Virus record (IMG/VR): IMGVR_UViG_2540341091_000002
Coordinates: 1-39,009 of that record
Reading direction: 5' to 3' (one strand)
DNA: 39,009 bases
DNA from: a virus
Taxonomy: Duplodnaviria; Heunggongvirae; Uroviricota; Caudoviricetes
The notes under the pieces are model-generated. The model was given only the letters and a program-made list of their open reading frames with translations. It had not been told where the DNA came from and did no database searches. The position numbers and the translations under genes are program-made. Below, one piece after another: positions 386-18,908 of this stretch. Each line of letters opens with the position of its first letter. The stretch's first letter is position 1.

Positions 386-1609
386 ATGGCGCTGTCTGAT
401 GCGTGGTTGCGTTCAGTCGTTGGAAAGGAACGTGATAAGGTTTTGGTTAAATCCGATCGTGATGGTCTGTCTGTCAGAGTATCACCGAAAGGTCGCGTAG
501 TGTTCCAATATCGTTATCAATGGGCAGGGAAAGGTGAGCGTCTTGATATCGGAACTTACCCGGCAACTGGATTAAAAGAGGCCAGAGAAGAAGTTATCCG
601 TCTCCGTGGTGAACTCGAGTCAAACCGTAATCCACGATTGGTCAAGCAGGCTGAAAAACGAAAAGCTACTGAAGCCATGACGGTAGAGTCTGTGATCCGT
701 GCCTGGTATGAAGCATATTGTGTAAAAAATAAAAAAGGCTCTGAACAGATACTCCGCTCGTTTGAGCTGCACCTGTTCTCTAAAATCGGGAATATCCCTC
801 ACGATGCAGCTACATTGCATGATTGGTTAGAAGTCCTGGAGCCTCTTAGCACTAAGACTCCAGCAATAGCAGACCGATTGCTAATTAACGCAAAGCAGGC
901 CCATGTCTGGGCGTATAAGAGAAAGCTCATTGAAACTCGCCCGCTGTCGGATATCACGGGTAAAGATATGGATATCCGTAAAGGTCAGAAGAAACGGTTT
1001 CTGACACATGATGAAATTAAAATCCTTTATGCTGCGATCGATGGTTCTCGAATGGTTCCTAAATACCGGGCCTTCATTAAACTATTGCTGCATTTTGGCT
1101 GCCGTAGTTCAGAGCTAATTACCGCCAGGGTGGACGATTTTGATTTCATTAATAAAGTATGGACTGTACCACCAGAACGACATAAGACTGGGGAGATAAC
1201 GGGCGAACCGCTAAAACGGCCCATTATTGAACCGGTTGAAGAGCTTATAAAGTACGCTATTTCTATGAACAATGGTTCCGATATGCTTTTTACTAAGGAA
1301 GGAAGCAGGGAACCCGTTGGTCGGACATCATTGCAGTCGCTGCCTTACAATTTAATGCAGTATGCATGGCGGCGTTTGGGGTATCAATTCCCTCATTGGT
1401 CTCTGCATGATTTGAGGCGAACAGCACGAACAAACTTTTCTGATCTTACTGCGCCTCATATCGCAGAAATAATGCTCGGTCATAAACTGCCGGGGGTATG
1501 GCAAGTTTATGACAAGAGTGATTATTTAGAAGAACAGCGTAAAGCCTACCAGGCATGGTGGGAGAGAGTTGAATCGATTGTTACTTGTTCTGGTTCAGAC
1601 ACCAACTGA
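386..1609 (+). CDS. int: Tyrosine site-specific integrase (P4-type family)
   Basis: 407 aa; N-terminal arm-binding-like region (VSPKGRVVFQYRYQWAGKGERLDIGTYP) and C-terminal catalytic region with HDLRRTARTNF and LGHK...VYD motifs typical of phage integrases; sits next to the disrupted host gene. Confidence 0.9.
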   Translation: MALSDAWLRSVVGKERDKVLVKSDRDGLSVRVSPKGRVVFQYRYQWAGKGERLDIGTYPATGLKEAREEVIRLRGELESNRNPRLVKQAEKRKATEAMTVESVIRAWYEAYCVKNKKGSEQILRSFELHLFSKIGNIPHDAATLHDWLEVLEPLSTKTPAIADRLLINAKQAHVWAYKRKLIETRPLSDITGKDMDIRKGQKKRFLTHDEIKILYAAIDGSRMVPKYRAFIKLLLHFGCRSSELITARVDDFDFINKVWTVPPERHKTGEITGEPLKRPIIEPVEELIKYAISMNNGSDMLFTKEGSREPVGRTSLQSLPYNLMQYAWRRLGYQFPHWSLHDLRRTARTNFSDLTAPHIAEIMLGHKLPGVWQVYDKSDYLEEQRKAYQAWWERVESIVTCSGSDTN

Positions 1610-1781: not shown

Positions 1782-3035
1782 ATGAAAGTCGAAATGAATA
1801 CTAAACTTTTGGCCTATTTAAACAATGAGTTACATGGAGTGTGGATAGATAGTGAAAATCGTAATATCCACATAATACTTAAATCAAGCCTTCCTATAAT
1901 TAAATCCGTCTGGTCAGGAGCACCTATCCACTTTTTGGTAGGTTTATCTACTAAAAATATACTAGTGATTGGGATGTTGATTGAAGATAATGTCGATAAT
2001 CCATTTTTACTAGCCTATCCACCAAGAGAGGCAGATGAAATTAAAGGGCTGGATTTGTTATTGTCAGGCGCTTATGATGGTATTCTATTATCATTTTTTG
2101 ACTCGCATACAATGCGTGTTATGGACCTGAAAATAAAAGTTTCGGAAAATTTACCGTGTGAATGTTTAAAAAAATTTTGTGCTAATTCATATTCTCTCAA
2201 TTCAGGATTTAGGGAAGGTAATGAAGCAATGGATGAATTCTGCAACAATGCTTTGACTGGTAACGAGAAAATAATTAGTCTGCCACTAAGTGTAATCGAT
2301 AAAAAATCTTACCTAGCAAGTGTTCATGAACCAAACGATACCGTATTAACATATGAATTTAGCGTCAGTGAAAACGGCTCTGAGGGATATGAGCAGGAAG
2401 CTCTTATATACCATGCTTTGCGGCAGGTCTTTTCACCGGAGGAAGTGTTTTTTTCTCCAGATATTATTGAGGGTAATAAAAAAAGAGAACTAGTTGATAT
2501 TCTTATTGTAGAAAATGACTATGTATTATCTATACAGTCTAAAGCATCATCTTTGATTGAAATGGGTTTAAAATCTCATGAAAAGCTTTGTAGCATGTAT
2601 AAGAAAAAAGCATTGCAAGGGATCGATCAGGTTAAAGGCGTTATCCCAATTCTAAATAATGATGTGGTTATTAATTATGACGGGAGGGAATGCTTAATAA
2701 AGCGCAGAAAGGGTATTTATCATTTAGTGATAATCTCAGATCTTGTTTTAGAGAAAGAAGGTGCTGAAAAGATTTATAACGAAATTAGCAACCTTAAAGA
2801 GTCAAAAGGGGCGAAAGTTTTAGTTATGAGCCTTGAAGGTCTTGTAAATTTTATAAGACTATCAAGATTAAATAAAAGAATGTTTTGGGCAATGCTGGAG
2901 ACTAAATACAAGTTCAGCATAAAAAACCGTACAATTTTAATTAGAGATATCGACTCTAGCCAAGAGAATAATCTACCATTACTTGCCACTGATCAATACC
3001 TATCACTTCTTCGAGGTACGGGAAAATTAAAATAA
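1782..3035 (+). CDS. Hypothetical AT-rich cargo protein; possible PD-(D/E)xK-like nuclease core (candidate defence or abortive-infection gene)
   Basis: 417-aa ORF with AAGGA ribosome-binding site upstream; composition is markedly AT-rich (roughly one-third G+C by eye, against about half in flanking phage genes); residues ~200-255 (EQEALIYHAL...ELVDILIVENDYVLSIQSK) fit an alpha-beta-beta-beta D...QxK pattern; no family recognised. Confidence 0.6.
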   Translation: MKVEMNTKLLAYLNNELHGVWIDSENRNIHIILKSSLPIIKSVWSGAPIHFLVGLSTKNILVIGMLIEDNVDNPFLLAYPPREADEIKGLDLLLSGAYDGILLSFFDSHTMRVMDLKIKVSENLPCECLKKFCANSYSLNSGFREGNEAMDEFCNNALTGNEKIISLPLSVIDKKSYLASVHEPNDTVLTYEFSVSENGSEGYEQEALIYHALRQVFSPEEVFFSPDIIEGNKKRELVDILIVENDYVLSIQSKASSLIEMGLKSHEKLCSMYKKKALQGIDQVKGVIPILNNDVVINYDGRECLIKRRKGIYHLVIISDLVLEKEGAEKIYNEISNLKESKGAKVLVMSLEGLVNFIRLSRLNKRMFWAMLETKYKFSIKNRTILIRDIDSSQENNLPLLATDQYLSLLRGTGKLK

Positions 3036-3220: not shown

Positions 3221-3261
3221 AAAAAAATAAATAGCTTGTCTGCTCTTGATACAGAGCAGAC
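3221..3261 (-). terminator. Rho-independent terminator ending the leftward early operon
   Basis: Perfect 9-bp inverted repeat gtctgctct/agagcagac with 6-nt loop (3238-3261); on the minus strand it is followed by a T-rich run (plus-strand aaaaaaataaata at 3221-3233). Confidence 0.5.
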
Positions 3262-3320
3262 AGTCAGATCTGTTTGGCTTGTGCCATAGATGTGCCAGCT
3301 CACATTTGAGCTAATGTTTG

Positions 3321-3515
3321 TTACTCAATTACTCCTGCAAACCTGTATATCTTACGTGATGCCCATTTATTTGGGCAGGATTTAATATCAGGATCTGGAA
3401 AATCAGGCCGATATTTCTGACCAGTCCTCCGGTTTACACTGTTCCAGCGAAGCACCGTCGATATTGAAACGCCACAGAATTCGGCGACTTGTTTTGTTGT
3501 CATTAAGTTGTTCAT
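3321..3515 (-). CDS. Excisionase-like helix-turn-helix DNA-binding protein (AlpA/TorI/Xis type), probable recombination directionality factor
   Basis: Start taken at internal Met (MNNLMTTKQVAEFCGVSISTVLRW...), which forms an ATGA overlap with the upstream gene stop; small HTH protein at the end of the operon near int. Confidence 0.6.
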   Translation of the reverse strand: MNNLMTTKQVAEFCGVSISTVLRWNSVNRRTGQKYRPDFPDPDIKSCPNKWASRKIYRFAGVIE

Positions 3516-3859
3516 TGTTGACCCTCCTGTGGTTGTGCAGTTGAAAGACTCATGCCCGCGCGTTGTTGCCAGACGACCCAGCCGAGAGCCATATCCCACG
3601 CCATGTACTCGTTATCACCGTTTTTTGCTCTCCGACGATCGACTGTTTTACCGAAACGCTTTTCCATAAATAATTCATAGGCTGCGCGTTCATCTGGCTC
3701 AACTTCCAGAGATGCCAGTGCAATCCGTGCCAGTTCTAAATCATCTTCAAGCTCAGCGCGAATCTCAGCGAATGCACTCTGTGTTAAGGCGAACTCAATG
3801 CTCTGCACTTTATTCCGTGCGCGCTCAAGCAGTGCATGGTAGTTAATTTCGGTTGTCAT
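3512..3859 (-). CDS. Hypothetical prophage early protein
   Basis: 115-aa ORF translationally coupled to neighbours on both sides; acidic helical sequence; no family recognised with confidence. Confidence 0.55.
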   Translation of the reverse strand: MTTEINYHALLERARNKVQSIEFALTQSAFAEIRAELEDDLELARIALASLEVEPDERAAYELFMEKRFGKTVDRRRAKNGDNEYMAWDMALGWVVWQQRAGMSLSTAQPQEGQQ

Positions 3860-4734
3860 ACCCCTACCTCTTCGAATTTCAATACCAATTGATCACCCCA
3901 GATTTCACATGACTCTGAACACGAGCCGGTATCGAATCGCCTGGCCTGTACCATCGCCTGATACAAATTTCTGTAGTCGCTGTTGGCAGACATTCTGGCA
4001 ATTCCGTCAAGCGTCAGGTGACCACGGTACATAACGTCTTTACCTGTTCTGCGATGACCATCCCTGACGTGTTTGCCTGTAACCAGCTCATTAAAAACTC
4101 GCATCAGACCAGGTTCGTCTTTACATGCAAGCCCCAGCTTTTGCGTTGACTTTTTGATGCAGAAAACACAGTTCCCGAGATGCTCCGGGATTTGCAAATC
4201 AAAAGGTTGTTTTCGCCACCACCGGATAACATCCGACTTATCAAAATCTGACAGTTCGGCAAGATACCGGACGCCCGATTTCGGTTTCAGCCTACGGGGT
4301 TCGTCTGCACGAATACCCAGCCATGTGATGTAATTACCTCGCCCGAAATGGTTATCGCAGTATTTCGTGAAAGGGATGAGTTTTAGCCTGTCAGTACAGA
4401 ACGCGCCGCCGATGTATGGCGTGCCGTACTTTTTAACCATGTCCATAAACGGTTTAAGTACCGGCATTCGCGTCTGAATATCCTTTGGCTCCCATTCTGT
4501 ATAACCATTTGGCTGCCCAAGCTCAGGATTGATATCGACCTGCAACACAGTTAGTGGTATGCCCCAGAACTTCACAACCTCCCGAATAAAGCGGTATGTC
4601 AGCGGATGTTCGCAACCGGTATCCATAAAGATGTAGCAGACGTTATTGCCAGCCTTTCTTTGTTCTTCCATCAGGTGAACAAGATATGCAGATGTTCTCC
4701 CGCCGGAAAAACTAACTACATGAGTTATGCACAT
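3856..4734 (-). CDS. Phosphoadenosine phosphosulfate (PAPS) reductase family protein, PP-loop ATP pyrophosphatase fold
   Basis: 292 aa; N-terminal VVSFSGGRTS PP-loop-like motif typical of the PAPS-reductase family; 10-bp overlap with upstream gene. Confidence 0.75.
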   Translation of the reverse strand: MCITHVVSFSGGRTSAYLVHLMEEQRKAGNNVCYIFMDTGCEHPLTYRFIREVVKFWGIPLTVLQVDINPELGQPNGYTEWEPKDIQTRMPVLKPFMDMVKKYGTPYIGGAFCTDRLKLIPFTKYCDNHFGRGNYITWLGIRADEPRRLKPKSGVRYLAELSDFDKSDVIRWWRKQPFDLQIPEHLGNCVFCIKKSTQKLGLACKDEPGLMRVFNELVTGKHVRDGHRRTGKDVMYRGHLTLDGIARMSANSDYRNLYQAMVQARRFDTGSCSESCEIWGDQLVLKFEEVGV

Positions 4735-5261
4735 TTGCGTAACTCCGATAACTCGTTAAAACGTTCCATAAACATCCCGTAGGCATGTCCTGGTGCCAGT
4801 GGAATCACTTTGAACATCTCTGTTGCCGGGATACCTTCCAGTACAGGCCAGAAAGAGCCATCATCAAGCCCGAGATCGCGGCGTTCGGTTGCCAGCATAA
4901 TGAGATCGGCATATTTCACTGGCGTGCTCATAACAGGAGGTAACCCGTATTTCTCACGGATTACGGCGTCTATTTTTTCTTCCATCTGTTTATAGTCAGG
5001 AAGAAGGCGTTTCAGTGGCGCGGGGATGTCCTGACAATACGCTTCTGTTGCATCATGCATTAACGCTTCAAAAGCAAACTCCTCCGGAACCAGTTTGCTG
5101 CAAAGCACCGCATGTTGGGCGACGCTGTAGAAGTGTGAAAGATGACCGGCAAAGCGACAGATATTTGAAAGGGAAACTGCGATATCGTTAATCACGATGT
5201 CGTCTTTATTTATCCTGTCATAATAAAAATGCTTCCCGGAAAAAGTTTTAATAAATGACAT
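4725..5261 (-). CDS. yfdR: HD-domain phosphohydrolase (YfdR-like, 5'-deoxynucleotidase family)
   Basis: Start placed at MSFIK (GGAG 6 nt upstream), giving 178 aa; HD motif in ALMHDATEAY; length and neighbours match the CPS-53 yfdP-yfdQ-yfdR arrangement as I recall it. Confidence 0.65.
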   Translation of the reverse strand: MSFIKTFSGKHFYYDRINKDDIVINDIAVSLSNICRFAGHLSHFYSVAQHAVLCSKLVPEEFAFEALMHDATEAYCQDIPAPLKRLLPDYKQMEEKIDAVIREKYGLPPVMSTPVKYADLIMLATERRDLGLDDGSFWPVLEGIPATEMFKVIPLAPGHAYGMFMERFNELSELRKCA

Positions 5262-5389
5262 TTTGTTCTCCACTTTATATGCGCTGCACCGCGCTGAATT
5301 TTGGTTAAAGAAAACCCTCGCCATCAGGCGATTATTGAGTTAATTACGTTTCCATAAATGCCCCCGCAGGGGCATTTGCAGTAATGAAA

Positions 5390-6214
5390 TCAGGCGGTGA
5401 AAGTACCAATAAAGGTTTCTACTTTGCTGTCTTTGAATTTTTCAACAAGCAGATTACGAAATTCGTTAGCCATTTCTTCCTGTACTGCTTCCAGCTGAAT
5501 AATGCGCAGAACCAGTACAGGGCGATCACCAGTGATAATGCTGAGGCGTAATTTAAACGGACGTTCTTTCAGGCCTTCAAACGGAACGCATTTAAACTCA
5601 AATACTACTGGCATAATGTCTTTAGTTTTCGCTTCGACAGACTCCATCAGAGAGCGTTTGCCGCTGAAGTCATTGTCTTCAAAATCAGCGGTCTGGTTTG
5701 CTTCAATCGTGATTTTACGGACCGCCGCAGCCGCTTTTGTTGCCTGAATGGCGTCACCATTAGCATCAAAGCCCACAAGGTAGTCGGCCCAGTCTTCAAT
5801 CCATTCTGCCAGTGACTTCTGGGAGTTACGCTCGCCGTTAACAGACAACAGGGCAGAGAACGGTGCTGTCTTTTTCAGTTTGAGAGTGGCGGTGTTATCT
5901 GCGTGACCTGGTTCATCAATAGTACCCAGGTTAAGCACACTGACGGCACGCATATTATCGGCATCGATAAAGCAGCGGGTGCCTTCATCTGCAAGAACTT
6001 TAGAATAACGGGTAAAGTCATCGATGCTGGCAGTGGAAAGCGCACCACGGAAACGGAAGCGATTTAAATTAAATTTTTCCAGATCATGAATGCGGAAATT
6101 CTCAGGCAATGCCACAGCATCGGCACCAATCTTACTGATAATTTCATTAACACCCTGAGCAGAAATAAGGGCATGGATTTGATTAATTGCGGTTGCGTCT
6201 AAGTTCTGAGACAT
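5390..6214 (-). CDS. yfdQ: YfdQ-like prophage protein (DUF2303 family), function unknown
   Basis: 274 aa, same length and position as CPS-53 YfdQ between YfdP-like and YfdR-like genes; assignment from recollection of the family, not a search. Confidence 0.6.
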
Positions 6215-6278
6215 AATAAGTCCTCACTATATAAAGATATTCAGTGATGAGATAAATAATCAGTTTATTAGAACGATA

Positions 6279-6641
6279 TTAACGACCTGCTGCGCGGAGT
6301 TTTCCGTCAGGTTCACCGGCAAGAGTCAGTAATTGTCCTTGGTCTTCCTGCAGAATAGTCAGGCGACCACCGCGATTGACATACATCGGCGTTTCGGTGG
6401 TGTCTTCTTCGGAAATTTTCCCGCGGTTAGTCGGGCGAACATATGAGAGTTTGTGTTTGATTTTTACACGGTTCTCATCAAACGGTTCGATTTCCAGGTT
6501 GAGCGAGACCTTACCTTTGGTTTTCGTGTTCATCACACCGGAAGCGACTTCACTGAGAACAGCGCCGATTTTGGTTTCAAATACGCCGCCGTCCAGCTCC
6601 CCGATAAATGCCTGCACATCAGTACTGCGTTCGCTAGCCAT
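6279..6641 (-). CDS. yfdP: YfdP-like prophage protein, function unknown
   Basis: Start placed at MASERSTD (AGGAG upstream), giving 120 aa; the longer track ORF has a Cys-rich, improbable N-terminal extension. Confidence 0.55.
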   Translation of the reverse strand: MASERSTDVQAFIGELDGGVFETKIGAVLSEVASGVMNTKTKGKVSLNLEIEPFDENRVKIKHKLSYVRPTNRGKISEEDTTETPMYVNRGGRLTILQEDQGQLLTLAGEPDGKLRAAGR

Positions 6642-7350
6642 TTTGCTGCTCCTCATCATATCGACCCCGCAAGGTCGGTTGGTTTCTCCACAAAACAGAG
6701 AAGAACACCAGCGGTGGCAGCCGCCCGGATGGATTGGGTTATGAGCCCGTCGTCCGGTGATGCCCTTCTCTGTTTTGTAAAAAGAGCGGTACCAGCCGGA
6801 AGCAAGTGTACAAACTGGTACCGCCAAAGCAGTGGCTGTTGTGGTGACCGGTGCTGATCTCCGGCTTGCGGTTATTTCAGACTCTCACGGGCGTTTAATT
6901 GCCCCGCCGAACAGCTCTTTTCCGCAATAGCTGCAATGTCTTTCGCGCATCAGCCTGCGCATTCACCACAACGCTGAGAGCATTGCCGGTGTCCGAATCG
7001 AACGGACCTTTTCCCTGCCCAACCCTCCCATCTGAATGGGACTGTCTGGAATTGAACCAGCACTTATGCCTTGCTCGTCAATGCTCTCATCGTTGCGTCC
7101 TGGTCTCTTCCCAAGCGTCAAACCGAATCGCCACGCTGGTTAGGCGTCTTATCAGCATCCTCATTGACTTGCACATTCCGGCTACCTGGTTTGTTTGCCC
7201 GAGCAAGGAGTGGATTATCCCCTTTAACGTCCCCAGACCGCTAACGACGCATGTGCCATACGCCGTGTTACAACCAAATTTTGTTTGAATCTTGCCTGCC
7301 TCATGTTTCTTTTGGATACATTATGTATCTCATAGGTACATTGTCAAGTA

Positions 7351-7373
7351 TAAAAAAACCTGCCGAAGCAGGT
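7351..7373 (-). terminator. Rho-independent terminator downstream of the repressor gene
   Basis: Hairpin acctgc-cgaa-gcaggt (7358-7373) followed on the minus strand by a run of seven T (plus-strand aaaaaaa at 7351-7357). Confidence 0.6.
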
Positions 7374-7386
7374 TCATAAATATTGA

Positions 7387-8061
7387 TTAGGCCTTTATTG
7401 TGTATCTTCTTGGTTTTCCCGAGAAAATCACTGTACCAATTATAGAGCAATTACCGTTAATCTTAATGTAAGGCTCAGGCCAGTTTGGGTTTAATGCTTT
7501 GAGATAACGCTGTGTTCCATCTTCTATCAACCGCTTGAAGGTGGTTTCGCCTGAATCGTGCATCAATGCAATAACGTCGTCACCGTGGCAGGCAGGGACT
7601 TCAGGATCAACAAAAATCATGTCTCCCGGGCGGTACTCATCAATCATTGAATCACCAATCACCCGCAAGATATAAGTCATTTCGCCACAGGGTACAGGGC
7701 AGGGATAAGTTTCTGCTGTGCTCAAATCAACCTCAGAATAGCCAACTTCTTTCCATGCTCCGGCCTGTACCCATGATATGACAGGGACTAACGTTATTTG
7801 TTTGTTAGTGATTGAAACATCAGGTTTTTTTGTGATGTTCGTGGTCTGGTGTTCTTGATCAAGCCATCCGACAGGCAGGTCGAAACATTTTTCGATGTGC
7901 CTTGCCATGCTGTCACCGATATTTTTAGTAGCACCATCTCCCATAAACCTGCTGGTCTGGGTTGGCTCGCGATCAATCATGGTGGCAAAGGAAGAATTCC
8001 CGCCAACACCATCTCTCAGTTTTCTGGCGTTAGACCGCCGGATGTCATGGACTGTTTTCAT
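7387..8061 (-). CDS. cI: CI-like prophage repressor (N-terminal HTH plus C-terminal S24 LexA-type autopeptidase domain)
   Basis: 224 aa; C-terminal VIGDSM...FKRL gives the Ser/Lys dyad context of S24 peptidases; divergent from a Cro-like gene; no Shine-Dalgarno before the ATG, consistent with a leaderless PRM-type transcript. Confidence 0.85.
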   Translation of the reverse strand: MKTVHDIRRSNARKLRDGVGGNSSFATMIDREPTQTSRFMGDGATKNIGDSMARHIEKCFDLPVGWLDQEHQTTNITKKPDVSITNKQITLVPVISWVQAGAWKEVGYSEVDLSTAETYPCPVPCGEMTYILRVIGDSMIDEYRPGDMIFVDPEVPACHGDDVIALMHDSGETTFKRLIEDGTQRYLKALNPNWPEPYIKINGNCSIIGTVIFSGKPRRYTIKA

Positions 8062-8383: not shown

Positions 8384-8947
8384 ATGAGGCTAACCGTGGG
8401 TAAGCATCACTGGAAAGTAGAAAAACAGCCTGAGTGGTACGTGAAAGCTGTCAGAAAAACTATCGCGGCGTTGCCGGGGGGGTACGCTGAAGCTGCTGAG
8501 TGGCTAGATGTAACAGAGAACGCTTTATTCAACCGCCTTCGTGCAGATGGCGATCAGATTTTCCCGCTGGGATGGGCAATGATTTTACAGCGCGCGGCTG
8601 GCACTCACTACATTGCGGATGCTGTCGCACAGTCTGCTGGTGGGGTGTTTGTATCGCTTCCTGAAATTGAGGAAGTAGAGAACGCCGATATAAACCAGCG
8701 CCTGCTGGAAGTCATCGAACAGATCGGGAGTTACTCAAAGCAGATTCGTTCGGCAATCGAAGATGGGGTAGTGGAGCCACACGAGCAGACAGCAATTAAT
8801 GATGAGTTGTATCTGTCAATTTCGAAGCTCCAGGAGCATGCAGCACTGGTCTACAAAATCTTTTGCGCTCCAGAAAAGAGTGACGCCCGCGAGTGTGCAG
8901 CTCCGGGCGTCGTGGCGTTTTGTGTCTGTGGAGAAACTAACGCATGA
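8384..8947 (+). CDS. Hypothetical early regulatory protein (possibly CII-like or YdaT-like)
   Basis: 187-aa ORF directly downstream of Cro-like gene; call is by position only. Confidence 0.45.
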   Translation: MRLTVGKHHWKVEKQPEWYVKAVRKTIAALPGGYAEAAEWLDVTENALFNRLRADGDQIFPLGWAMILQRAAGTHYIADAVAQSAGGVFVSLPEIEEVENADINQRLLEVIEQIGSYSKQIRSAIEDGVVEPHEQTAINDELYLSISKLQEHAALVYKIFCAPEKSDARECAAPGVVAFCVCGETNA

Positions 8948-9780
8948 ACAGTTTAACGGCAAATAACCGTTTGTCGCAACAGCTGGTGGTCAGCGTCGCT
9001 GAACACCTGTTGTTACGGCATGAATGCAGATTACCAAATCTCCTGGCTGTAAGTAACCACAGAGAACTTTACCTGACTGTGGGGGGCGAGTTGTGCAGGA
9101 ACTTAACCGCTGGTTTCGTGACGGAAGAGGACTTTATGTTCATGTTATTCGTTGGGAGCCAGAAACACAGCGCGTTATCTATCTTCGCAAAGACTACCCG
9201 CATGAGTGCTTTAGTCCTTTGTGGAAATTCAAGCGTGATTTTGTTGAGTGTGAAGGACCACCAGCACATTGATTCTGCCATTCCGGGACGTTACACTGTT
9301 CAGGCACCTTATAAAGCGGGTGCCGGGATTGGCGTCCTGGAATTGATCAAGGCGATATATGACGCGCCAGCGTCCTTTTTATCGTCCGCATTTGCTCACA
9401 TCAAAGTTATGGTGGGCTGGGCGGGGGCATCGAAAGATGCGCCGGTTTCCTTGATCACCGGTTACGCCAACCCCGTTCAGTTCACCACCAGCGAAATTGG
9501 CGTTTCCGGTGGTGGAAGTATTTCACCGATCAAGGAGGCTGCCATCATGGCTACTGTCCCAGCCCTCACTCGTCTGAATGATGAAGACTTACATAAACTC
9601 AGTTATGTAACAACTGCACTACGTGCTCTGCGCAAGGTAACTCTTTCGGATCCGCAGGCACATCAGGTTCTGGTAGAAACCCTTCTTAACTTGCAAGCTG
9701 AACGTATTCGTCTGGCGGATAAGGCTAATTTTCATATTCACCGTCTCCTGAATATCAGCGGAGGGCATCGTCATGCTTAA
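8944..9780 (+). CDS. Hypothetical protein; gene structure uncertain (possible frameshift or overlapping small gene at 9093-9272)
   Basis: 278-aa ORF with ATGA coupling to upstream gene; its first third looks compositionally atypical, while an alternative-frame GTG ORF (9093-9272) reads more protein-like. Confidence 0.35.
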   Translation: MNSLTANNRLSQQLVVSVAEHLLLRHECRLPNLLAVSNHRELYLTVGGELCRNLTAGFVTEEDFMFMLFVGSQKHSALSIFAKTTRMSALVLCGNSSVILLSVKDHQHIDSAIPGRYTVQAPYKAGAGIGVLELIKAIYDAPASFLSSAFAHIKVMVGWAGASKDAPVSLITGYANPVQFTTSEIGVSGGGSISPIKEAAIMATVPALTRLNDEDLHKLSYVTTALRALRKVTLSDPQAHQVLVETLLNLQAERIRLADKANFHIHRLLNISGGHRHA

Positions 9781-10009
9781 TCCGTTGCTCCTCAACATTT
9801 ACCGTTTATTTCAGCGTAAAAAAATATCAACACCCACAGTTGGGCAGTGGTACACCACGCCAGCAGGGCATGTTCTACGTGTCAGCCTGGTTGACCGTGA
9901 ATGTCAGAAGGTGATTTGTGAACCGCTGGGCCGTAATTACCGCGTCAGTATGCCGCTTATAGCCTTTCGCTCCGGAAAAAACATGAAGCATCTCGGAGGT
10001 GCAGCATGA
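9773..10009 (+). CDS. Hypothetical small protein
   Basis: 78-aa ORF translationally coupled between neighbouring genes. Confidence 0.4.
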   Translation: MLNPLLLNIYRLFQRKKISTPTVGQWYTTPAGHVLRVSLVDRECQKVICEPLGRNYRVSMPLIAFRSGKNMKHLGGAA

Positions 10010-10824
10010 GTATGGAGCTGATGGTTAAAGCGATGAAAATTCGAGTGGGTAATCCATTGCGAAAACTGGTTCTGATCAAGCTGGCTGATAATGCCAGCGA
10101 TCAGGGTGAGTGCTGGCCCAGCTACCAGCATATTGCTGACCAGTGCGAGATTAGCAAACGTTCTGTGATGAATCATATTGCGGCCCTTTGTGAGTCCGGG
10201 CTGGTAAAAAAAGTCACCCGGAAAGGTGAAAAAGGTAACTCAAGTAATATCTATCTCCTTCATCTGGATGGTGCAGGAGATTCACTAGGGGGTAGTGCAA
10301 ATAATTCACTATCTGGTGCAGCAAATTCACCAGGTAGTGCAGGAGTTGCACCAGGGGGTAGTGCAGGAGATTCACCCAGAACCAGTCACTCTTTTGAACC
10401 AGTCAAAGAACCAGTCAATGAACCAATAGCTGTTGGTGCATCTGCTGATGAGTCTGTGCGAGTTCGTTCAAACCGACCGGAATACTCTCCGGAGTTTGAG
10501 CAGGCATGGCTGGCATATCCCAAACGTGCTGGTGGCAATTCAAAATCTGCAGCCTTCAAAGCCTGGAAAGCCCGTTTGAATGAGGGGGTAAACCCCGAAA
10601 CCATGCTGGAAGGTGTGAAACGCTATGCGGGCTGGGTATCTGCGATGGGTAACAGCGGCACACAATTTGTGAAACAGGCTGTCACGTTCTTTGGTCCGGA
10701 TCGTCATTTCGAAGAATCCTGGGAAGTTCCTGCGGTATCTGCAGCCAGACGTGAGGACCCGTACTTCAAAGCCAGTTACGACAACGTGGACTACAGCCAG
10801 ATCCCGGCAGGATTCAGGGGGTGA
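10006..10824 (+). CDS. Replication initiation / replisome-organiser protein (N-terminal HTH, low-complexity linker, DnaT-like C-terminal region)
   Basis: 272 aa; N-terminal winged-helix-like segment, Gly/Ser/Ala-rich linker, C-terminal region resembling phage replication-protein tails; contains iteron-like DNA repeats. Confidence 0.65.
   Translation: MSMELMVKAMKIRVGNPLRKLVLIKLADNASDQGECWPSYQHIADQCEISKRSVMNHIAALCESGLVKKVTRKGEKGNSSNIYLLHLDGAGDSLGGSANNSLSGAANSPGSAGVAPGGSAGDSPRTSHSFEPVKEPVNEPIAVGASADESVRVRSNRPEYSPEFEQAWLAYPKRAGGNSKSAAFKAWKARLNEGVNPETMLEGVKRYAGWVSAMGNSGTQFVKQAVTFFGPDRHFEESWEVPAVSAARREDPYFKASYDNVDYSQIPAGFRG
10261..10420 (+). repeat. Iteron-like direct repeats inside the replication gene (putative origin)
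   Basis: About five copies of ggtagtgcagg(a)gattcac-like units (10270-10376) followed by three copies of gaaccagtca (10379-10420). Confidence 0.5.
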
Positions 10825-11315
10825 TCATGAGTCTTTTGAATGAAGTTCAGAAATTCATTGAAGCCCATCCGGGGTGTACTTCCGGAGACATTGCGGATGC
10901 TTTTGCAGGTTACTCACGGCAGCGCGTTCTGCAGTCAGCAAGCAAGTTACGTCAGAGTGGGCGTGTGGCTCACCGTTGTGAAGGAGATACACGCAGACAT
11001 TTCCCACGCCTGACTGAGAGAGCGCAGGAGCCGGAACCACAACCAGTTCGTGAAACCAGACCTGTGCGCAATTTCTATGTCGGCACTAACGACCCGCGGG
11101 TGATTTTGTGCCTGACCCGCCAGGCGGAAGAACTGGAGTCCAGGGGCTTATACCGTCGTGCTGCAACGGTGTGGATGGCGGCATTCCGTGAAAGCCACTC
11201 CCAGCCAGAACGAAATAATTTTCTGGCGCGTCGTGAACGGTGTTTACGGAAAAGCAATAAGCGGGCTGCATCAGGTGAAGAGTGGTATCTGTCAGGGAAT
11301 TACGTGGGGGCTTAA
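10821..11315 (+). CDS. Hypothetical regulator, possibly PerC-like transcriptional activator with N-terminal winged helix
   Basis: 164 aa; C-terminal AEELESRGLYRRAATVWMAAF resembles the conserved PerC-family segment as I recall it. Confidence 0.45.
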   Translation: MIMSLLNEVQKFIEAHPGCTSGDIADAFAGYSRQRVLQSASKLRQSGRVAHRCEGDTRRHFPRLTERAQEPEPQPVRETRPVRNFYVGTNDPRVILCLTRQAEELESRGLYRRAATVWMAAFRESHSQPERNNFLARRERCLRKSNKRAASGEEWYLSGNYVGA

Positions 11316-11968
11316 TGAGTAATAAATATTGCCAGGCGCTGGTGGAACTGCGGAACAAACCAGCCCATGAACTGAAGGAAGTGGGCGATCAGTGGCGCAC
11401 GCCGGATAACATTTTCTGGGGAATTAACACCCTGTTTGGTCCGTTTGTTCTGGATCTGTTCACTGACGGTGATAACGCCAAATGTGCCGCGTATTACACG
11501 GCGGAAGACAACGCGCTGGCACATGACTGGTCAGAACGTCTTGCGGAGCTTAAAGGTGCTGCCTTTGGTAATCCCCCATACAGCCGCGCCAGTCAGCATG
11601 AGGGGCAATACATCACCGGCATGCGTTACATCATGAAACATGCCAGTGCCATGCGTGATAAGGGCGGGCGCTATGTTTTCCTGATCAAAGCTGCCACCAG
11701 CGAAGTGTGGTGGCCGGAAGATGCGGACCATATTGCTTTTATTCGCGGGCGTATTGGTTTTGAACTGCCTGCCTGGTTTATCCCGAAGGATGAGAAGCAG
11801 GTGCCGACAGGCGCTTTCTTCGCTGGTGCTATTGCTGTTTTCGACAAGACCTGGAAGGGACCGGCAATCAGCTACATCGGGCGCGATGAACTTGAGGCAT
11901 GTGGTGAGGCGTTTCTGGCGCAGGTTCGCCAGCAGGCAGAAAAACTTGTCAGGGAGATGGCGGCATGA
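11315..11968 (+). CDS. DNA N6-adenine methyltransferase (phage Dam-type, orphan)
   Basis: Start at MSNKY (TAATG overlap with upstream stop); FGNPPYS catalytic motif of N6-adenine methyltransferases. Confidence 0.8.
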   Translation: MSNKYCQALVELRNKPAHELKEVGDQWRTPDNIFWGINTLFGPFVLDLFTDGDNAKCAAYYTAEDNALAHDWSERLAELKGAAFGNPPYSRASQHEGQYITGMRYIMKHASAMRDKGGRYVFLIKAATSEVWWPEDADHIAFIRGRIGFELPAWFIPKDEKQVPTGAFFAGAIAVFDKTWKGPAISYIGRDELEACGEAFLAQVRQQAEKLVREMAA

Positions 11969-12291
11969 CGACGTTAACTCAATGCCAGCAGCAGGTGCTG
12001 GATATGCTGATTTCTTACCAGCAAGAGCGTGGCTTTCCGCCAACCAATCAGGAGGTGGCAACCATGCTGGGATACCGTTCAGTGAATGCAGCGGTGGAGC
12101 ATCTTCGCGCACTGGAGAAAAAAGGCGTCATCACGATAAAGCGTGGCGTGGCCCGGGGTATCACTCTTCATACCGCGGTGAAGGACGACGACAGCGAGGC
12201 GGTCGGGATTATCCGCGCACTGCTTGCCGGTGAGGAAAACGCCAGGCTGCGTGCAGCCCACTGGTTACATGAGAGGGGCCTGAAAGTATGA
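11965..12291 (+). CDS. LexA N-terminal-like winged-helix DNA-binding protein (no peptidase domain)
   Basis: 108 aa; QQQVLDMLISYQQERGFPPTNQEVATMLGYRSVNAAVEHLRALEKKGVI parallels the LexA DNA-binding domain; ATGA-coupled to the methyltransferase. Confidence 0.7.
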   Translation: MTTLTQCQQQVLDMLISYQQERGFPPTNQEVATMLGYRSVNAAVEHLRALEKKGVITIKRGVARGITLHTAVKDDDSEAVGIIRALLAGEENARLRAAHWLHERGLKV

Positions 12292-12677
12292 AGCTGATCC
12301 TGCCTTTCCCGCCCAGCGTGAACACGTACTGGCGACACCCCAACAAAGGGGCGTTTGCAGGTAAGAGCCTGATAAGCGCGGCGGGGCGCAAATTCCAGAG
12401 CGCGGCGTGTGCAGCAATAGTTGAGCAGTTACGTCGTCTGCCGAAACCAACGTCGGCACCTGCTTCAGTGGAGATCGTGTTGTTTCCTCCGGATAACCGG
12501 ATCCGCGATCTGGACAACTATAACAAGGCGCTGTTTGACGCCCTGACCCACGCGGGTGTGTGGGAAGACGACAGACAGGTGAAAAGAATGCTGGTGGAGT
12601 GGGGACCGGTTATCCCGAAAGGGAAGGTCGAGATCACTATCAGTAAGTACGAGAAAACGGCGGGTGCAGCCGCCTGA
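12288..12677 (+). CDS. rusA: RusA-family Holliday junction resolvase
   Basis: 129 aa; N-terminal LPFPPSVNTYWRH and conserved DLDNYNKALFDALTHAGVWEDD acidic motif typical of RusA. Confidence 0.85.
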   Translation: MKLILPFPPSVNTYWRHPNKGAFAGKSLISAAGRKFQSAACAAIVEQLRRLPKPTSAPASVEIVLFPPDNRIRDLDNYNKALFDALTHAGVWEDDRQVKRMLVEWGPVIPKGKVEITISKYEKTAGAAA

Positions 12678-12696
12678 TTAAGAGGAGAAACGAAGT

Positions 12697-13506
12697 ATGA
12701 ATAATCTGATGGTTATTGATGGTATTGAAGTTCGTCGTGATGCTTATGGGCGTTACAGCCTGAACGATCTGCACAGGGCAGCCGGGGGAGAACAAAAAAA
12801 CCGCCCGAAATACTGGCTCTCCAATAAGCAAACCTGTGAATTGATTGAACAACTTTTCACCGAGGGTGGAATTCCGCCTCTGGAACAAAATCAACCAGTT
12901 AGCGTCATTAATGGCGGAAATAACCAGGGGACGTATGTCTGCAAAGAACTGGTGTATGCCTATGCAATGTGGATCAGCCCGTCATTCCATCTGAAGGTGA
13001 TCCGTACTTTCGATATGGTAACCAGCGCACCGGAAAAATTATCCGGACAGGCTGCTGACAAGATGCAGGCTGGTGTGATTCTGCTGGACTTTATGCGTCG
13101 GGAGTTAAACCTGTCTAACTCTTCAGTGCTTGGTGCCTGTCAGAAACTCCAGGAGGCTGTTGGCTTACCGAATCTGGCACCGCGCTATGCCATTGATGCT
13201 CCTGCTGATGCACACGATGGCTCAAGTCGCCCGACACTGTCACTGAGTGCACTGCTGAAACAGTATGGTATCCGCCTGACGGCTAATCAGGCATATCACC
13301 AGATGGTGAAGCTGGGGATCGTCGAGCAGCGCGAACGATACAGCCGTACCGGGATTAACAACATCAAAAAATTCTGGTCGCTGACGGCGAAAGGCTGCAT
13401 GTTCGGCAAGAACATCACCAGTCCCGCAAATCCGCGCGAGACGCAGCCGCATTTCTTCGAATCCCGATTCCCTGAGCTGTTAAAGCTGCTCGATACCGTT
13501 CATTGA
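12697..13506 (+). CDS. KilA-N domain protein (antirepressor-like)
   Basis: 269 aa; N-terminal IDGIEVRRDAYGRYSLNDLHRAAGG segment typical of KilA-N/Bro-N proteins; paralogous N-terminus to the 17686 gene. Confidence 0.65.
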   Translation: MNNLMVIDGIEVRRDAYGRYSLNDLHRAAGGEQKNRPKYWLSNKQTCELIEQLFTEGGIPPLEQNQPVSVINGGNNQGTYVCKELVYAYAMWISPSFHLKVIRTFDMVTSAPEKLSGQAADKMQAGVILLDFMRRELNLSNSSVLGACQKLQEAVGLPNLAPRYAIDAPADAHDGSSRPTLSLSALLKQYGIRLTANQAYHQMVKLGIVEQRERYSRTGINNIKKFWSLTAKGCMFGKNITSPANPRETQPHFFESRFPELLKLLDTVH

Positions 13507-13507
13507 G

Positions 13508-14503
13508 GTGACCGTGAGAGCACTACTGACCCCTGAAATTGCCCCGCGTATGGGGATCGTATTGTTCAGGCCAGGTTCAGAGCTGATGCCCCTGTTTATG
13601 CAGGGGCGTGTCCTGCTGGAGCCTGAGCCAGAACGTTATTCATCTTTCGCCAGTGGTGCCGTTCCGGCGGCATCACAACCGCTGGCGGATGATCCTGCCG
13701 TTCGGGCCGTGTTCCGCAATGAGGCAGTGATCCGTCGTGCTGGTGGCGTGGAATGTCTTGAAAGCTGGTTACTTCGTGAAAAAGGCTGCCAGTGGCCTCA
13801 TTCCGACTGGCACAGCGAGAACATGACCACAATGCGACACGCTCCGGGCGCAATCCGTCTGTGCTGGCACTGCGATAACCAGCTGCGCGATCAGTTCACG
13901 GAACGGCTGGAATCAATGGCAACGGATAACTGTGCCCGCTGGGTGTTGTCTGTAGTCCGTCGGGATCTCGGTTTTGATGATAACCATGCCGTGACAATGC
14001 CGGAACTGTGCTGGTGGCTGATTCGTAATGACCTGGCGGATGCCTTACCTGAAAGCGCAGCCCGTAAGGCGCTGAGATTACCGAAACCTGTTGTGCCGTC
14101 TGTCACCCGGGAAAGTGACCTTGTGCCTTCGGTTCCTGCCACCAGCATCATCCAGGATAAAGCGAAAAAGGTGCTGGCGCTGAAAGTGGATCCGGAGTCG
14201 CCGGAGTCTTTTATGTTACGCCCAAAACGCCGCCGCTGGGTTAATGAAAAGTACACGCGCTGGGTTAAGACACAGCCGTGTGCATGTTGTGGAAAGCCTG
14301 CTGATGATCCCCACCACCTGATAGGCCACGGTCAGGGTGGAATGGGTACAAAAGCGCATGACCTCTTTGTGTTGCCTTTGTGCAGAAAGCATCACGACGA
14401 GCTGCATGCGGATACCGTGGCATTTGAAGAAAAGTATGGCTCTCAGCTGGAGCTGATATTTCGTTTTATCGATCGTGCGCTGGCAATTGGCGTATTGGCG
14501 TAA
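13508..14503 (+). CDS. DUF968-type prophage protein with C-terminal HNH-like Cys/His motif
   Basis: 331 aa; C-terminal CACCGKPADDPHHL...LCRKHHDELH cluster; commonly found upstream of Q in lambdoid prophages. Confidence 0.6.
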   Translation: MTVRALLTPEIAPRMGIVLFRPGSELMPLFMQGRVLLEPEPERYSSFASGAVPAASQPLADDPAVRAVFRNEAVIRRAGGVECLESWLLREKGCQWPHSDWHSENMTTMRHAPGAIRLCWHCDNQLRDQFTERLESMATDNCARWVLSVVRRDLGFDDNHAVTMPELCWWLIRNDLADALPESAARKALRLPKPVVPSVTRESDLVPSVPATSIIQDKAKKVLALKVDPESPESFMLRPKRRRWVNEKYTRWVKTQPCACCGKPADDPHHLIGHGQGGMGTKAHDLFVLPLCRKHHDELHADTVAFEEKYGSQLELIFRFIDRALAIGVLA

Positions 14504-14516
14504 GTGGAGAACGAGC

Positions 14517-15269
14517 ATGAACCTTGAAGCCTTACCAAAATATTACTCCCCAAAATCTCCAAAATTGAGCGATGACGCACCGGCGACAGGCTCAGGTGGT
14601 TTAACGATTACGGATGTGATGGCTGCGCAGGGGATGGTGCAGTCGAAAGCACCGCTTGGGTTTGCCTTATTCCTGGCAAAAGTTGGTGTTCAGGATCCTC
14701 AATTTGCGATTGAAGGTCTGCTCAATTACGCGATGGCACTGGATAACCCGACATTGAACAAATTGAGTGAAGAAACCCGGTTACAGATCATCCCTTACCT
14801 TGTGAATTTTGCCTTTGCTGATTATTCCAGGTCTGCGGCAAGTAAGGCTCGCTGTGAGCATTGTGCTGGTACTGGATTTCATAATGTATTGCGCGAAGTG
14901 GTGAAACACTCCAGAAGCGGGGAATCTGTTATCAAGGAAGAGTGGGTGAAGGAACTATGTCAGCATTGCCATGGTAAGGGAGAAGTCAGCACAGCGTGCA
15001 GAGGGTGTAAGGGTAAAGGTATTGTCCTGGATGAAAAAAGAACCCGGCTTCATGGTGTGCCTGTTTATAAGATTTGTGGGCGTTGCAATGGCAACCGGTT
15101 TAGCCGTTTACCAACCACACTGGCGCGGCATCATGTCCAGAAGCTGGTACCGGATCTGACGGATTATCAGTGGTACAAAGGATATGCAGATGTCATTGAT
15201 AAACTGGTGACAAAGTGCTGGCAGGAAGAAGCATATGCTGAGGCGCAATTAAGAAAAGTGACGAGATAA
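14517..15269 (+). CDS. Q: Late-gene antitermination protein Q
   Basis: Start at MNLEAL with GGAGA upstream; four CxxC pairs (CEHCAG, CQHCHG, CRGCKG, CGRCNG); positioned just upstream of a promoter/terminator pair and the lysis genes. Confidence 0.8.
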   Translation: MNLEALPKYYSPKSPKLSDDAPATGSGGLTITDVMAAQGMVQSKAPLGFALFLAKVGVQDPQFAIEGLLNYAMALDNPTLNKLSEETRLQIIPYLVNFAFADYSRSAASKARCEHCAGTGFHNVLREVVKHSRSGESVIKEEWVKELCQHCHGKGEVSTACRGCKGKGIVLDEKRTRLHGVPVYKICGRCNGNRFSRLPTTLARHHVQKLVPDLTDYQWYKGYADVIDKLVTKCWQEEAYAEAQLRKVTR

Positions 15270-15295
15270 ATGATTTTCGCCGAAGATGGCGACAT

Positions 15296-15340
15296 GATTC
15301 TTGCATTTTTCAAAAAATCTGGTTAGGATTTTCCTAACGA
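15296..15340 (+). promoter_or_regulatory. Candidate late promoter (PR-prime equivalent) and Q-utilisation region
   Basis: ttgcat and a taggat-like element with near-17-bp spacing between Q stop and the downstream terminator; assignment positional and weak. Confidence 0.3.
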
Positions 15341-15378
15341 TGGGCTTTGTATGTCTGCCGTTAACGAAATCATAACAA

Positions 15379-15400
15379 ACCTCGCTTCGGCGGGGTTTTT
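15379..15400 (+). terminator. Rho-independent terminator downstream of Q (tR-prime equivalent)
   Basis: Stem cctcgc / gcgggg closing a ttcg tetraloop, followed by ttttt. Confidence 0.6.
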
Positions 15401-15419
15401 GCTTTTCTGGAGGTCAATA

Positions 15420-15677
15420 ATGCAGGGCGAAAAGCAGCAGCCATATTTTTTTAACCCTGGTATGACTGTTGAACAGCTTGAAGACTGGCTGGAGCAGCAA
15501 AAGCTTCATCTAAGCCGCTATAACCGTCTGGTAAAAGAAAAAGCAGAGCTTGAAGAACGGCTCAGTGATATTTCTGTGGAAATTGAACGAATGTCTGCTG
15601 GTGGTTTTAACGGAAAGTTGAGTTTCCCTTGGGAGTCAAGTTCGCTTCTGAGAAATCATCAACAGGGTAGTGTTTGA
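15420..15677 (+). CDS. Small late-expressed hypothetical protein (coiled-coil-like), cargo position between Q terminator and lysis genes
   Basis: 85-aa ORF from ATG 15420 with GGAGG 6 nt upstream; the longer track ORF would span the terminator. Confidence 0.5.
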   Translation: MQGEKQQPYFFNPGMTVEQLEDWLEQQKLHLSRYNRLVKEKAELEERLSDISVEIERMSAGGFNGKLSFPWESSSLLRNHQQGSV

Positions 15678-15756
15678 CTGAAATAATAAACAGAATGTCA
15701 TTAAGATCCCTTCCCCTCATATCTGAGAGGACCAACAGCAATTAAGAGGGGGCTAA

Positions 15757-17483: not shown

Positions 17484-17515
17484 TTTTTTTGCAAATCACA
17501 AAGTCCATTTAATGA

Positions 17516-18882: not shown

Positions 18883-18908
18883 TAATAATTCTCAACTGTC
18901 TGAGGGGA

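Follow-up and report, generated by a model that had tools for sequence, protein, structure and literature searches.

The early-left operon of a lambdoid Escherichia coli prophage: a common yfdP-yfdQ-yfdR core with a lambda ninC homologue in a variable slot

Introduction

The yfdQRST genes of Escherichia coli K-12 were recovered by Noguchi and Katayama as a multicopy suppressor of over-initiation (PMC4776307). Multicopy yfdQRS or yfdQRT blocks initiation from oriC in vivo in several genetic backgrounds, and extracts containing YfdQRST inhibit oriC initiation in vitro as well (PMC4776307). Purified K-12 YfdR binds DnaA in a manner that depends on Phe46 of domain I, and its affinity for nucleotides is much lower than that of YfbR (PMC4776307). 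In K-12 yfdR is followed by yfdS, which encodes a DUF551 protein (PMC10834534), and two of the three proteins of the yfdP-yfdQ-yfdR trio have no known function (PMC12315714). Here we describe a leftward operon (positions 3512-6641, minus strand) in which the same trio is followed by a homologue of phage lambda ninC. It is located in a stretch of 39,009 nucleotides (nt) of phage DNA (Caudoviricetes), positions 1 to 39,009 of IMG/VR record IMGVR_UViG_2540341091_000002, and this whole stretch is referred to below as the window.

Lambda ninC is non-essential and no function has been assigned to its product. A relative is encoded by p0018 of Vibrio phage 44E38.1; when p0018 and the adjacent p0019 were moved into a sensitive phage, that phage was able to grow on a Dnd host (Piel et al., preprint 10.1101/2021.05.05.442762), a result that has been cited as Dnd escape (PMC13551039). 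The first-pass annotation of the window took the operon for one nucleotide-metabolism-like module that might serve in anti-defence or in the manipulation of nucleotide pools. We find that the gene set is the common, already annotated yfdP-yfdQ-yfdR early operon with a copy of lambda ninC in a variable slot, i.e., known parts side by side rather than a new nucleotide-metabolism pathway.

Gene content of the operon

Five minus-strand genes were confirmed as open reading frames (ORFs) within 3512-6641, and both 3512 and 6641 are gene limits in the RefSeq annotation of near-identical DNA as well. An xis-like gene is the last of the leftward transcript. From the repressor to the integrase the genes in question are:

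7387-8061, minus strand: S24/LexA-type (cI-like) repressor
6279-6641, minus strand: yfdP, 120 amino acids (aa), the constant upstream partner of yfdQ; 98% identity to K-12 YfdP; phrog_204
5390-6214, minus strand: yfdQ (DUF2303), 274 aa; PF10065 at E 2.8e-91; 98% identity to K-12 YfdQ
4725-5261, minus strand: yfdR, HD-domain 5'-deoxynucleotidase-like, 178 aa; 97% identity to K-12 YfdR; PF12917, PF13023, phrog_318
3856-4734, minus strand: lambda NinC homologue, PP-loop protein of the phosphoadenosine phosphosulfate (PAPS)-reductase-like type, 292 aa; 79% identity to lambda NinC
3512-3859, minus strand: yfdT-like gene, 115 aa; C-terminal 79 aa 73% identical to K-12 YfdT; phrog_660
3321-3515, minus strand: excisionase-like (xis-like) gene, 64 aa from the ATG at 3515; phrog_1553 'excisionase' at E 7.7e-35
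386-1609, plus strand: integrase

The first three proteins are those of the CPS-53 element of E. coli K-12 MG1655 at 97 to 98% identity. PHROG matches are strong for all genes of the operon, and the four family calls of the first-pass annotation (PAPS reductase, HD, DUF2303 and YfdP-like) were right according to Pfam, PHROG and the identity to K-12 proteins. The HD protein scores 25.2 bits with the YfbR-like family PF12917, slightly below the cut-off of 25.9 bits, and matches PDB entry 2gz4 at E 1.5e-13 with the HD motif aligned. An upstream ATG at 5324 offers yfdR an alternative start, which would give a protein of 199 aa (4725-5324). No Pfam or PDB match was found for the 115-aa yfdT-like protein. 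The slot that in K-12 lies between yfdR and yfdT and holds yfdS (120-aa DUF551) is here occupied by the PAPS-reductase-like gene.

The operon had been described as a translationally coupled run. This is correct from yfdR to xis, where yfdR overlaps the PAPS-reductase-like gene by 10 nt, the latter overlaps the 115-aa gene by 4 nt (ATGA) and the 115-aa gene overlaps xis by 4 nt, but not for yfdP, yfdQ and yfdR, which are separated by gaps of 64 nt (yfdP-yfdQ) and 128 nt (yfdQ-yfdR, or 65 nt with the upstream ATG). Coupling is thus restricted to the distal half of the operon.

The window represents a prophage of E. coli that begins with the integrase gene, followed by a gene for a 417-aa protein on the plus strand, the leftward block that ends in the xis-like gene and then the repressor. 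Its closest complete genome is E. coli FAM21845 (98.3% identity over 93% of the first 25 kb), where the element adjoins yjjG and runs on into lambdoid early-right genes, a head of the HK97 type and a contractile tail of the Mu/SfV type. The operon is flanked by the cI/S24-type repressor on one side and by xis/int on the other. This is the position of red/gam in lambda, as had been noted in the first-pass annotation, and the annotation of the closest relative lists no Red, RecET or Erf gene over the 93% of the first 25 kb that it shares with the window.

Of 5426 complete E. coli genomes, 3172 contain parts of the region. The full arrangement is present in 271, in which the PGAP annotation agrees with the gene calls made here. 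Among the deposited phage records 112 share parts of the region, and none covers 80% of it.

YfdQ matches PDB entry 9o7m ('YfdQ protein', 36 chains) at E 5.9e-45. The sequence of this entry shares 95-99% identity with proteins from the Usme/MET23-P3 group of Xanthomonas/Xylella phages, and a literature search on 9o7m, YfdQ or DUF2303 found no paper for the structure. Apart from 9o7m, a fold search with a YfdQ model (predicted local distance difference test, pLDDT, 77.5) turned up no informative relative. Phages of Xylella/Xanthomonas likewise encode YfdP and YfdQ as a pair. The Xylella phage Usme (locus L171, 4532-5786) has a YfdP homologue of 39% identity directly upstream of YfdQ, in an early operon that also holds a recombinase, an exonuclease and a single-stranded DNA-binding protein (SSB).

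Co-occurrence of the genes

Conservation of the gene order was followed in a YfdQ-centred set of 80 loci from species-representative genomes, in which YfdQ is 41-98% identical and which ranges from Enterobacterales to Marinobacter, Hahella and Photobacterium. YfdP is encoded directly upstream of YfdQ in 79 of the 80 loci (median offset -420 nt) and YfdR downstream of it in 58. The order P-Q-R on one strand was likewise found in 58 loci, 37-38 of which have a cI-like gene upstream. A NinC homologue was found in 0/80. Unbiased clustering of the neighbouring ORFs agrees with the counts for YfdP, YfdR and NinC, and the idea of one module, which had been put forward for the whole operon, does not survive them.

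A second, NinC-centred set from IMG/VR consists of the 80 closest alleles, all 93-99% identical; more distant co-occurrence was judged from the YfdQ set and from individual phage records. In 63 of the 80 alleles yfdR lies directly upstream of NinC, and most of the others are compatible with truncation at a contig end. NinC homologues were found in 589 phage records and their contexts are varied, including the nin regions of lambda and Oslo, a Drexlerviridae phage, a Casjensviridae phage and Vibrio phages. As NinC is missing from all 80 YfdQ loci and its homologues occur in unrelated contexts, the pairing of HD and PP-loop genes is best seen as a local arrangement of E. coli-type prophages rather than as a pair conserved for its function. 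What follows yfdR varies, being yfdS in K-12 and NinC here. A conserved HD-PAPS pair was also considered for the Vibrio phage and rejected, as the neighbour of its PAPS-Dam gene, p0019, encodes a DUF6475 protein unrelated to YfdR.

Of the 80 YfdQ loci (L091-L170), 24 carry a gene for a protein of about 190 aa towards the distal end of the operon, at 2-3 kb downstream of yfdQ. From its sequence the protein was judged to be a DEDDh 3'-5' exonuclease similar to Rv2179c, an assignment that was checked on the NinC neighbour in Cronobacter phage JC01, which matches PF16473. The window has no gene of this kind, which may be another recurrent occupant of variable distal slots.

The NinC homologue

The product of the PAPS-reductase-like gene is 79% identical to lambda NinC (Orf290, lambdap64) over 285 residues and of about equal length. 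It matches phrog_424 ('phosphoadenosine phosphosulfate reductase') at E 4.8e-91 and the Pfam family PAPS_reduct (PF01507) at 35.8 bits relative to a cut-off of 22.5 bits, the latter in residues 5-71 only and over 65 of 175 profile positions. In an alignment of 23 homologues at 50-80% identity the PP-loop residues S8, S10-G11-G12-R13 and S15 (SxSGGRxS) are invariant, as are D38-T39-G40 and the six cysteines C113, C126, C189, C192, C272 and C276. Conservation of C272 falls to at least 90% when the alignment is extended to 27 sequences.

The name given to phrog_424 would suggest an enzyme of the CysH type. However, at the aligned position of the PP-loop the NinC homologue reads SGGRTS, in contrast to SSSFG (SSSFGIQ) in CysH and SFSGAE in adenosine phosphosulfate (APS) reductase, and its score with the NCBIfam CysH equivalog NF002537 is 20.2 bits, below the cut-off of 154 bits. 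The catalytic C-terminal motif of CysH is ECGLH. This motif is not present in the NinC homologue, which ends in DTGSCSESCE and in which the P-loop is not degenerate. A structural model (pLDDT 85.8), built from an alignment without the lambda NinC row, was compared with known folds by Foldseek. The best matches are the APS/PAPS reductases 2goy, 6vpu and 1sur (E 4e-5 to 1e-4, probability 1.0, about 180 aa aligned), followed by the sulfur transferases LarE and TtuA/NcsA and also by MesJ/TilS; about 100 C-terminal residues lie outside the aligned part and are without a counterpart in CysH. In the PADLOC library the protein matches SspD at 3.4e-15 (residues 5-152 only), BrxP at 3e-4 and DndC at 6.5e-3 to 7.6e-3. 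Taken together, the motifs, the CysH score, the fold and the SspD match put the NinC homologue in the PP-loop 'PAPS-reductase-like' superfamily and probably nearer to the enzymes of DNA phosphorothioation than to CysH. We would place it closer in type to SspD/DndC and would not count it among the enzymes of sulfate assimilation. The conserved cysteines probably carry an iron-sulfur (Fe-S) cluster or a persulfide.

Some NinC homologues carry a fused Dam methyltransferase domain (PF01507 + PF05869). One of these is p0018 of Vibrio phage 44E38.1, whose PAPS domain is 55% identical to the NinC homologue over the full length (285 aa) with all cysteine and PP-loop motifs kept. In the fusion family phrog_33262 the NinC homologue matches positions 2-273 of 495 (E 4.6e-90). 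It ends at residue 292, and a Dam domain is encoded by a separate gene in the rightward operon:

11282-11968, plus strand: phage N6-adenine DNA methyltransferase (Dam type); TIGR01712 at E 1.7e-76; phrog_33262 positions 283-492 of 495

As the two genes match the two halves of one fusion family, the Dam gene may work together with the NinC homologue, a suggestive link of the Rosetta-stone type. In Salmonella phage Oslo NinC is encoded directly after a Dam-type methylase.

Regulation and a structured leader RNA

The following signals were found at the two ends of the operon:

7356-7375: terminator-like hairpin after the repressor gene, with the candidate pL just downstream
7320-7347, minus strand: promoter-like site (TTGACA, 16 nt, CATAAT; 11 of 12 matches), a candidate pL from its consensus match alone
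6779-6825, minus strand: GC-rich hairpin (6786-6825) with U-tract in the operon leader, intrinsic-terminator-like, read from the sequence
6682-6783, minus strand: structured leader RNA of about 102 nt, a three-way junction whose end lies about 40 nt before the start codon of yfdP
3237-3262, minus strand: terminator-like hairpin after xis, 10 pairs and a T-run

The region has no excess of promoter-like sites (4 found, 7.5 expected). The hairpin at 3237-3262 is the probable end of the operon. The stem of the hairpin at 6786-6825 covaries between genera and it folds in computation; it is missing from the terminator scan, probably as its loop exceeds the limit of 3-8 nt used in the scan.

The block at 6682-6783 is better conserved between genera than the flanking leader. 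It has a long stem, P1, together with an arm, P2, whose apical loop is GGG-CUCAUAA-CCC, and a hairpin, P3, that varies. The three-way junction fits 26 distinct leader sequences with 98.1% of the cells paired, as compared with 40-62% in slid controls, and 13 of its 34 pairs show compensatory changes, which was matched in 0 of 500 shuffles. One pair, for instance, is G-C in 13 sequences, C-G in 12 and U-A in 1. The fold of the window copy has a z-score of -5.95. With the covariance model the operon (minus) strand scores 106 bits versus 37 bits for the plus strand, and the RNA is present in a single copy in the window. Of the 80 YfdQ loci, at least 31 have the RNA, at 90-115 bits and in every case immediately before yfdP. 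It occupies the same place in phage mEp460. Weaker matches in Serratia, Yersinia, Proteus and Morganella retain mainly the long outer stem. The RNA was not detected in the K-12 stretch (L002) nor in the two most K-12-like loci (L091 and L092). A search of Rfam 15 returned no family and nothing at E <= 1, and the Pas small RNA preprint makes no mention of the leader locus.

The 5' strand of the long stem contains CACAACA in most genera and CAAAACA in the window copy, and the 3' strand is GU-rich. CACAACA is the consensus sequence that the R1 seed of GcvB targets. Our guesses for the role of the element are a site of RNase III processing or a leader that binds a protein. Other readings were tried and discarded. 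The GGGCUCAUAACCC loop resembles the anticodon arm of tRNA-Met, and here ARAGORN found no tRNA and Rfam nothing. A nut/put-like element would have a second copy in the rightward operon, and the covariance model finds one copy only. AgvB, which is 51-60 nt long and located 3' of PR', is a different element.

Further upstream in the leader a second block, at 6960-7110, is conserved in 9-15 loci. On the plus strand this part of the leader has an ORF at 6899-7288, for which phage mEp460 annotates a hypothetical protein (74% identity with a gap of 20 residues; rich in Cys, Arg and Thr). We do not treat it as a gene here. The stretch may be a gene, a further RNA element or pL-proximal regulatory DNA.

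Other features of the window

Chi sites (GCTGGTGG) are frequent in the window, 19 being found where 1.4 are expected by chance. Fifteen are on the plus strand, and all are located in the rightward early/structural region (8636-27437). As the closest relative has no annotated recombinase module either, the prophage belongs with the Chi-rich lambdoid phages of the 'no Rec module' class (PMC12315714).

Beyond the repressor two Rfam families were matched at gathering level, the Hfq-binding RNA isrK (59.6 bits) at 9304-9380 and the C4 antisense RNA (82.3 bits) at 9405-9492, both on the plus strand and both inside a 278-aa ORF at 8944-9780. This suggests an antisense-controlled antirepressor of the P1/P7 type (immI-like) beside the lambdoid immunity region.

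The 417-aa gene between int and xis (1782-3035, plus strand) has a G+C content of 0.34 compared with about 0.5 elsewhere. It has no match in Pfam, NCBIfam or PADLOC and was assigned to phrog_30399 only. In the related prophage H85, found with the same 25-kb query, an 'anti-phage dCTP deaminase' is annotated somewhere under the match. The gap between int and xis may be a hot spot for cargo or defence genes.

Discussion

We read the region as the early-left (pL-type) operon of an SfV/CPS-53-like lambdoid E. coli prophage beside yjjG, made of separable parts, i.e., a host-takeover core, a slot filled by NinC, and the yfdT-like and xis genes. To this reading we assign a probability of roughly 55%. 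A structured leader RNA precedes the core genes in a large subset of loci. YfdR, by its near-identity to the K-12 protein, would be a low-affinity deoxynucleoside monophosphate phosphatase that binds domain I of host DnaA, and together with YfdQ and a downstream partner it would hinder the loading of DnaB at oriC. The core would thereby brake initiation of the host chromosome early after induction or infection as a means of host takeover, a function that we propose with moderate confidence from sequence. Lambda P acts on DnaA, and the action proposed for the core would be analogous. The slot after yfdR here holds the NinC homologue, which would be a PP-loop enzyme of the ATP-pyrophosphatase type, and the yfdT-like gene and xis close the leftward transcript. 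At 97% identity the properties of K-12 YfdR are the best available guide to its counterpart in this prophage. The present analysis itself shows which genes are there and in what order, how their motifs are conserved, with which genes they co-occur and how the leader RNA is folded. It is from the K-12 and Vibrio proteins that we infer DnaA binding and anti-Dnd activity for this prophage, and the physiological role is inferred likewise.

Several observations weigh against a role of the core in host takeover. The effect on DnaA was seen only under overexpression, deletion of yfdQRST has no initiation phenotype in K-12, and the authors concede that the effect of overexpression could be an artefact (PMC4776307). 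The published partner is YfdS or YfdT and not NinC; in the window yfdS is absent and the N-terminus of the yfdT-like protein has diverged. Also, YfdP and YfdQ have no assigned biochemical function, and the fold search gave YfdQ no informative relative.

For the slot, we consider it most likely that the NinC homologue acts alone, or possibly with the phage Dam, as a DNA-modification counter-defence against phosphorothioate-dependent (Dnd-type) restriction. Anti-defence had been suggested for the operon as a whole. Homology makes the idea plausible for the NinC homologue, by way of the 55%-identical, Dam-fused protein of the anti-Dnd insert, but not for YfdP, YfdQ and YfdR, which match no PADLOC or anti-defence family. 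In its full form the proposal would be that NinC, including lambda NinC, is a sulfur-transfer enzyme of the DndC/SspD kind that together with Dam represents a split PAPS-Dam fusion and modifies or masks the phage DNA, in an operon under a structured leader RNA of a family that is undescribed as far as Rfam shows. We offer this tentatively and at well under even odds. A number of points speak against a counter-defence role of the NinC homologue. The anti-Dnd activity was mapped to a two-gene insert, the PAPS-Dam fusion with DUF6475, and not to the PAPS domain alone (preprint 10.1101/2021.05.05.442762), and DUF6475 (p0019) is absent from the window. DndA/D/E or SspA/B/C partners are missing both from the window ORFs of 1-12 kb and from the annotated genes of the closest relative, and lambda NinC is dispensable for laboratory growth. 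Dam genes occur near YfdQ in 32 of the 80 loci irrespective of NinC, so that the presence of both Dam and NinC in one window is weak evidence for a partnership. A literature search that combined PAPS reductase, prophage and anti-defense found nothing.

Other explanations for the gene set and for the NinC homologue must be weighed against these proposals. The HD, PP-loop, YfdQ and YfdP proteins might work in one pathway, directed at nucleotide pools or at the second messengers of CBASS, Thoeris or Pycsar. The genes are co-transcribed, with a 10-nt overlap between yfdR and the PAPS-reductase-like gene, HD enzymes hydrolyse nucleotides, YfdR has 5'-deoxynucleotidases as its nearest characterised relatives, and among close relatives the arrangement is stable with yfdR upstream in 63 of 80. 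Nevertheless, no NinC-type gene stands beside YfdQ/YfdR in the 80 species-level loci, and NinC homologues occur without an HD gene in lambda, Oslo, GaoY1-9D, JC01 and Vibrio phages. Manipulation of nucleotide pools or signalling, which the first-pass annotation had brought up as a possibility, has no direct support, the published data on YfdR being DnaA binding and a nucleotide affinity far below that of YfbR (PMC4776307). With the lack of matches to defence and anti-defence families noted above for the core proteins, a single pathway appears improbable. We are hardly more inclined to see in yfdP, yfdQ and yfdR an unrecognised module for recombination or RecBCD control that has replaced Red/Gam, even though the trio is in the position of Red/Gam with no recombinase annotated in the closest relative, YfdP-YfdQ of Usme share their operon with a recombinase, an exonuclease and SSB, a K-12 yfdQ deletion is weakly sensitive to methyl methanesulfonate (PMC4776307), and the 36 chains of 9o7m could mean rings or filaments like those of annealing proteins. 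The trio occurs both with and without a recombination module, being found alongside a complete Rec module in ArgO145, which makes such a role unlikely, also in the judgement of the authors who described it (PMC12315714). In Shigella phage Ss-VASD the trio is preceded by a recombinase and an endonuclease, the fold of YfdQ is unlike those of Rad52, RecT, Erf, Sak4 and Gam, and the excess of Chi sites (19 where 1.4 are expected) fits reliance on the host RecBCD and not on a recombinase of the phage.

As for the NinC homologue, it could be a true CysH-type auxiliary metabolic gene product that boosts assimilatory sulfate reduction during infection. In line with this PF01507 is matched above its gathering cut-off, phrog_424 bears the name of the reductase and the PHROG category 'moron, auxiliary metabolic gene', and APS/PAPS reductases are the best fold matches. 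The match covers only 65 of 175 Pfam positions, though, and the equivalog score is far too low (20.2 of 154 bits). The protein keeps the ATP-type SGGxxS PP-loop, unlike CysH and APS reductase at the aligned position, has GSCSESCE in place of ECGLH at the C-terminus and about 100 C-terminal residues with no CysH counterpart, and finds its best match in the defence library in SspD. Sulfate reduction is therefore a very improbable role. A different possibility is that the protein is an active PP-loop/Fe-S enzyme with a substrate unrelated to Dnd, for instance in the thiolation of tRNA or other RNA (TtuA/NcsA-like) or in some other adenylation-dependent modification. TtuA, NcsA, LarE and MesJ/TilS are indeed among the fold matches, the PP-loop and cysteine motifs are generic to the superfamily, and the anti-Dnd phenotype is not pinned on the PAPS domain alone. 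We still consider this rather unlikely, as the matches to tRNA-modifying enzymes (E about 4e-3 to 6e-3) are weaker than those to APS/PAPS reductases, fusion and adjacency to DNA adenine methyltransferases point to DNA, and the best defence-family match, SspD, is an enzyme of DNA phosphorothioation.

The gene set is in itself of minor interest, being present in hundreds of complete E. coli genomes with a published counterpart in K-12 and with lambda ninC as its odd member. Its value is as a pointer to the function of NinC, which the Dam fusion and the Vibrio anti-Dnd result open to a direct test. YfdP-YfdQ is a near-universal pair that opens many early-left operons, and a structure exists (9o7m). 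The leader RNA before yfdP may control the expression of such operons. NinC, YfdP-YfdQ and the leader RNA are all open to study in ordinary E. coli strains.

Comparison with known systems

YfdR shares the HD fold and motif as well as the RefSeq product name with YfbR, the housekeeping 5'-deoxynucleotidase of E. coli (PDB 2paq). The similarity in sequence is however marginal (E 0.36 to 2paq; 21 bits relative to the NCBIfam equivalog cut-off of 122 bits), and DnaA binding is not described for YfbR. Similarly, the NinC homologue belongs to the same PP-loop superfamily as the ATP-pyrophosphatase subunits DndC and SspD, although the SspD match is restricted to its N-terminal half and that to DndC is weak (about 7e-3). 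DndC and SspD work in systems with a cysteine desulfurase, a DndD/SspC ATPase and DndE/SspB partners, none of which is encoded near the NinC homologue.

In Vibrio phage 44E38.1 the PAPS and Dam parts are fused in p0018, whereas in the window they are separate genes 6.5 kb apart on opposite strands. The anti-Dnd activity of the Vibrio phage was seen with the fusion and DUF6475 together. With lambda NinC every conserved motif is held in common. The difference lies in the location, as lambda ninC lies between ninB and ninD in the rightward operon, within the nin region, and the gene described here is in the leftward operon and overlaps yfdR.

The closest systems are yfdP-Q-R-S-T of CPS-53 (KpLE1) and orf29-31 of Shigella phage SfV, which have the same gene order and position, with a yfdT-like gene as the last, and belong to the same type of prophage, combining lambdoid early genes with an SfV-like structural region. 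In CPS-53 the slot holds the 120-aa DUF551 protein YfdS in place of the 292-aa NinC homologue, and the N-terminal third of YfdT differs from that of the yfdT-like protein. Finally, CPS-53 is a remnant of 10 kb, whereas the prophage described here looks largely intact over the 39-kb window, its closest relative being annotated from the integrase through the head, tail and baseplate genes.

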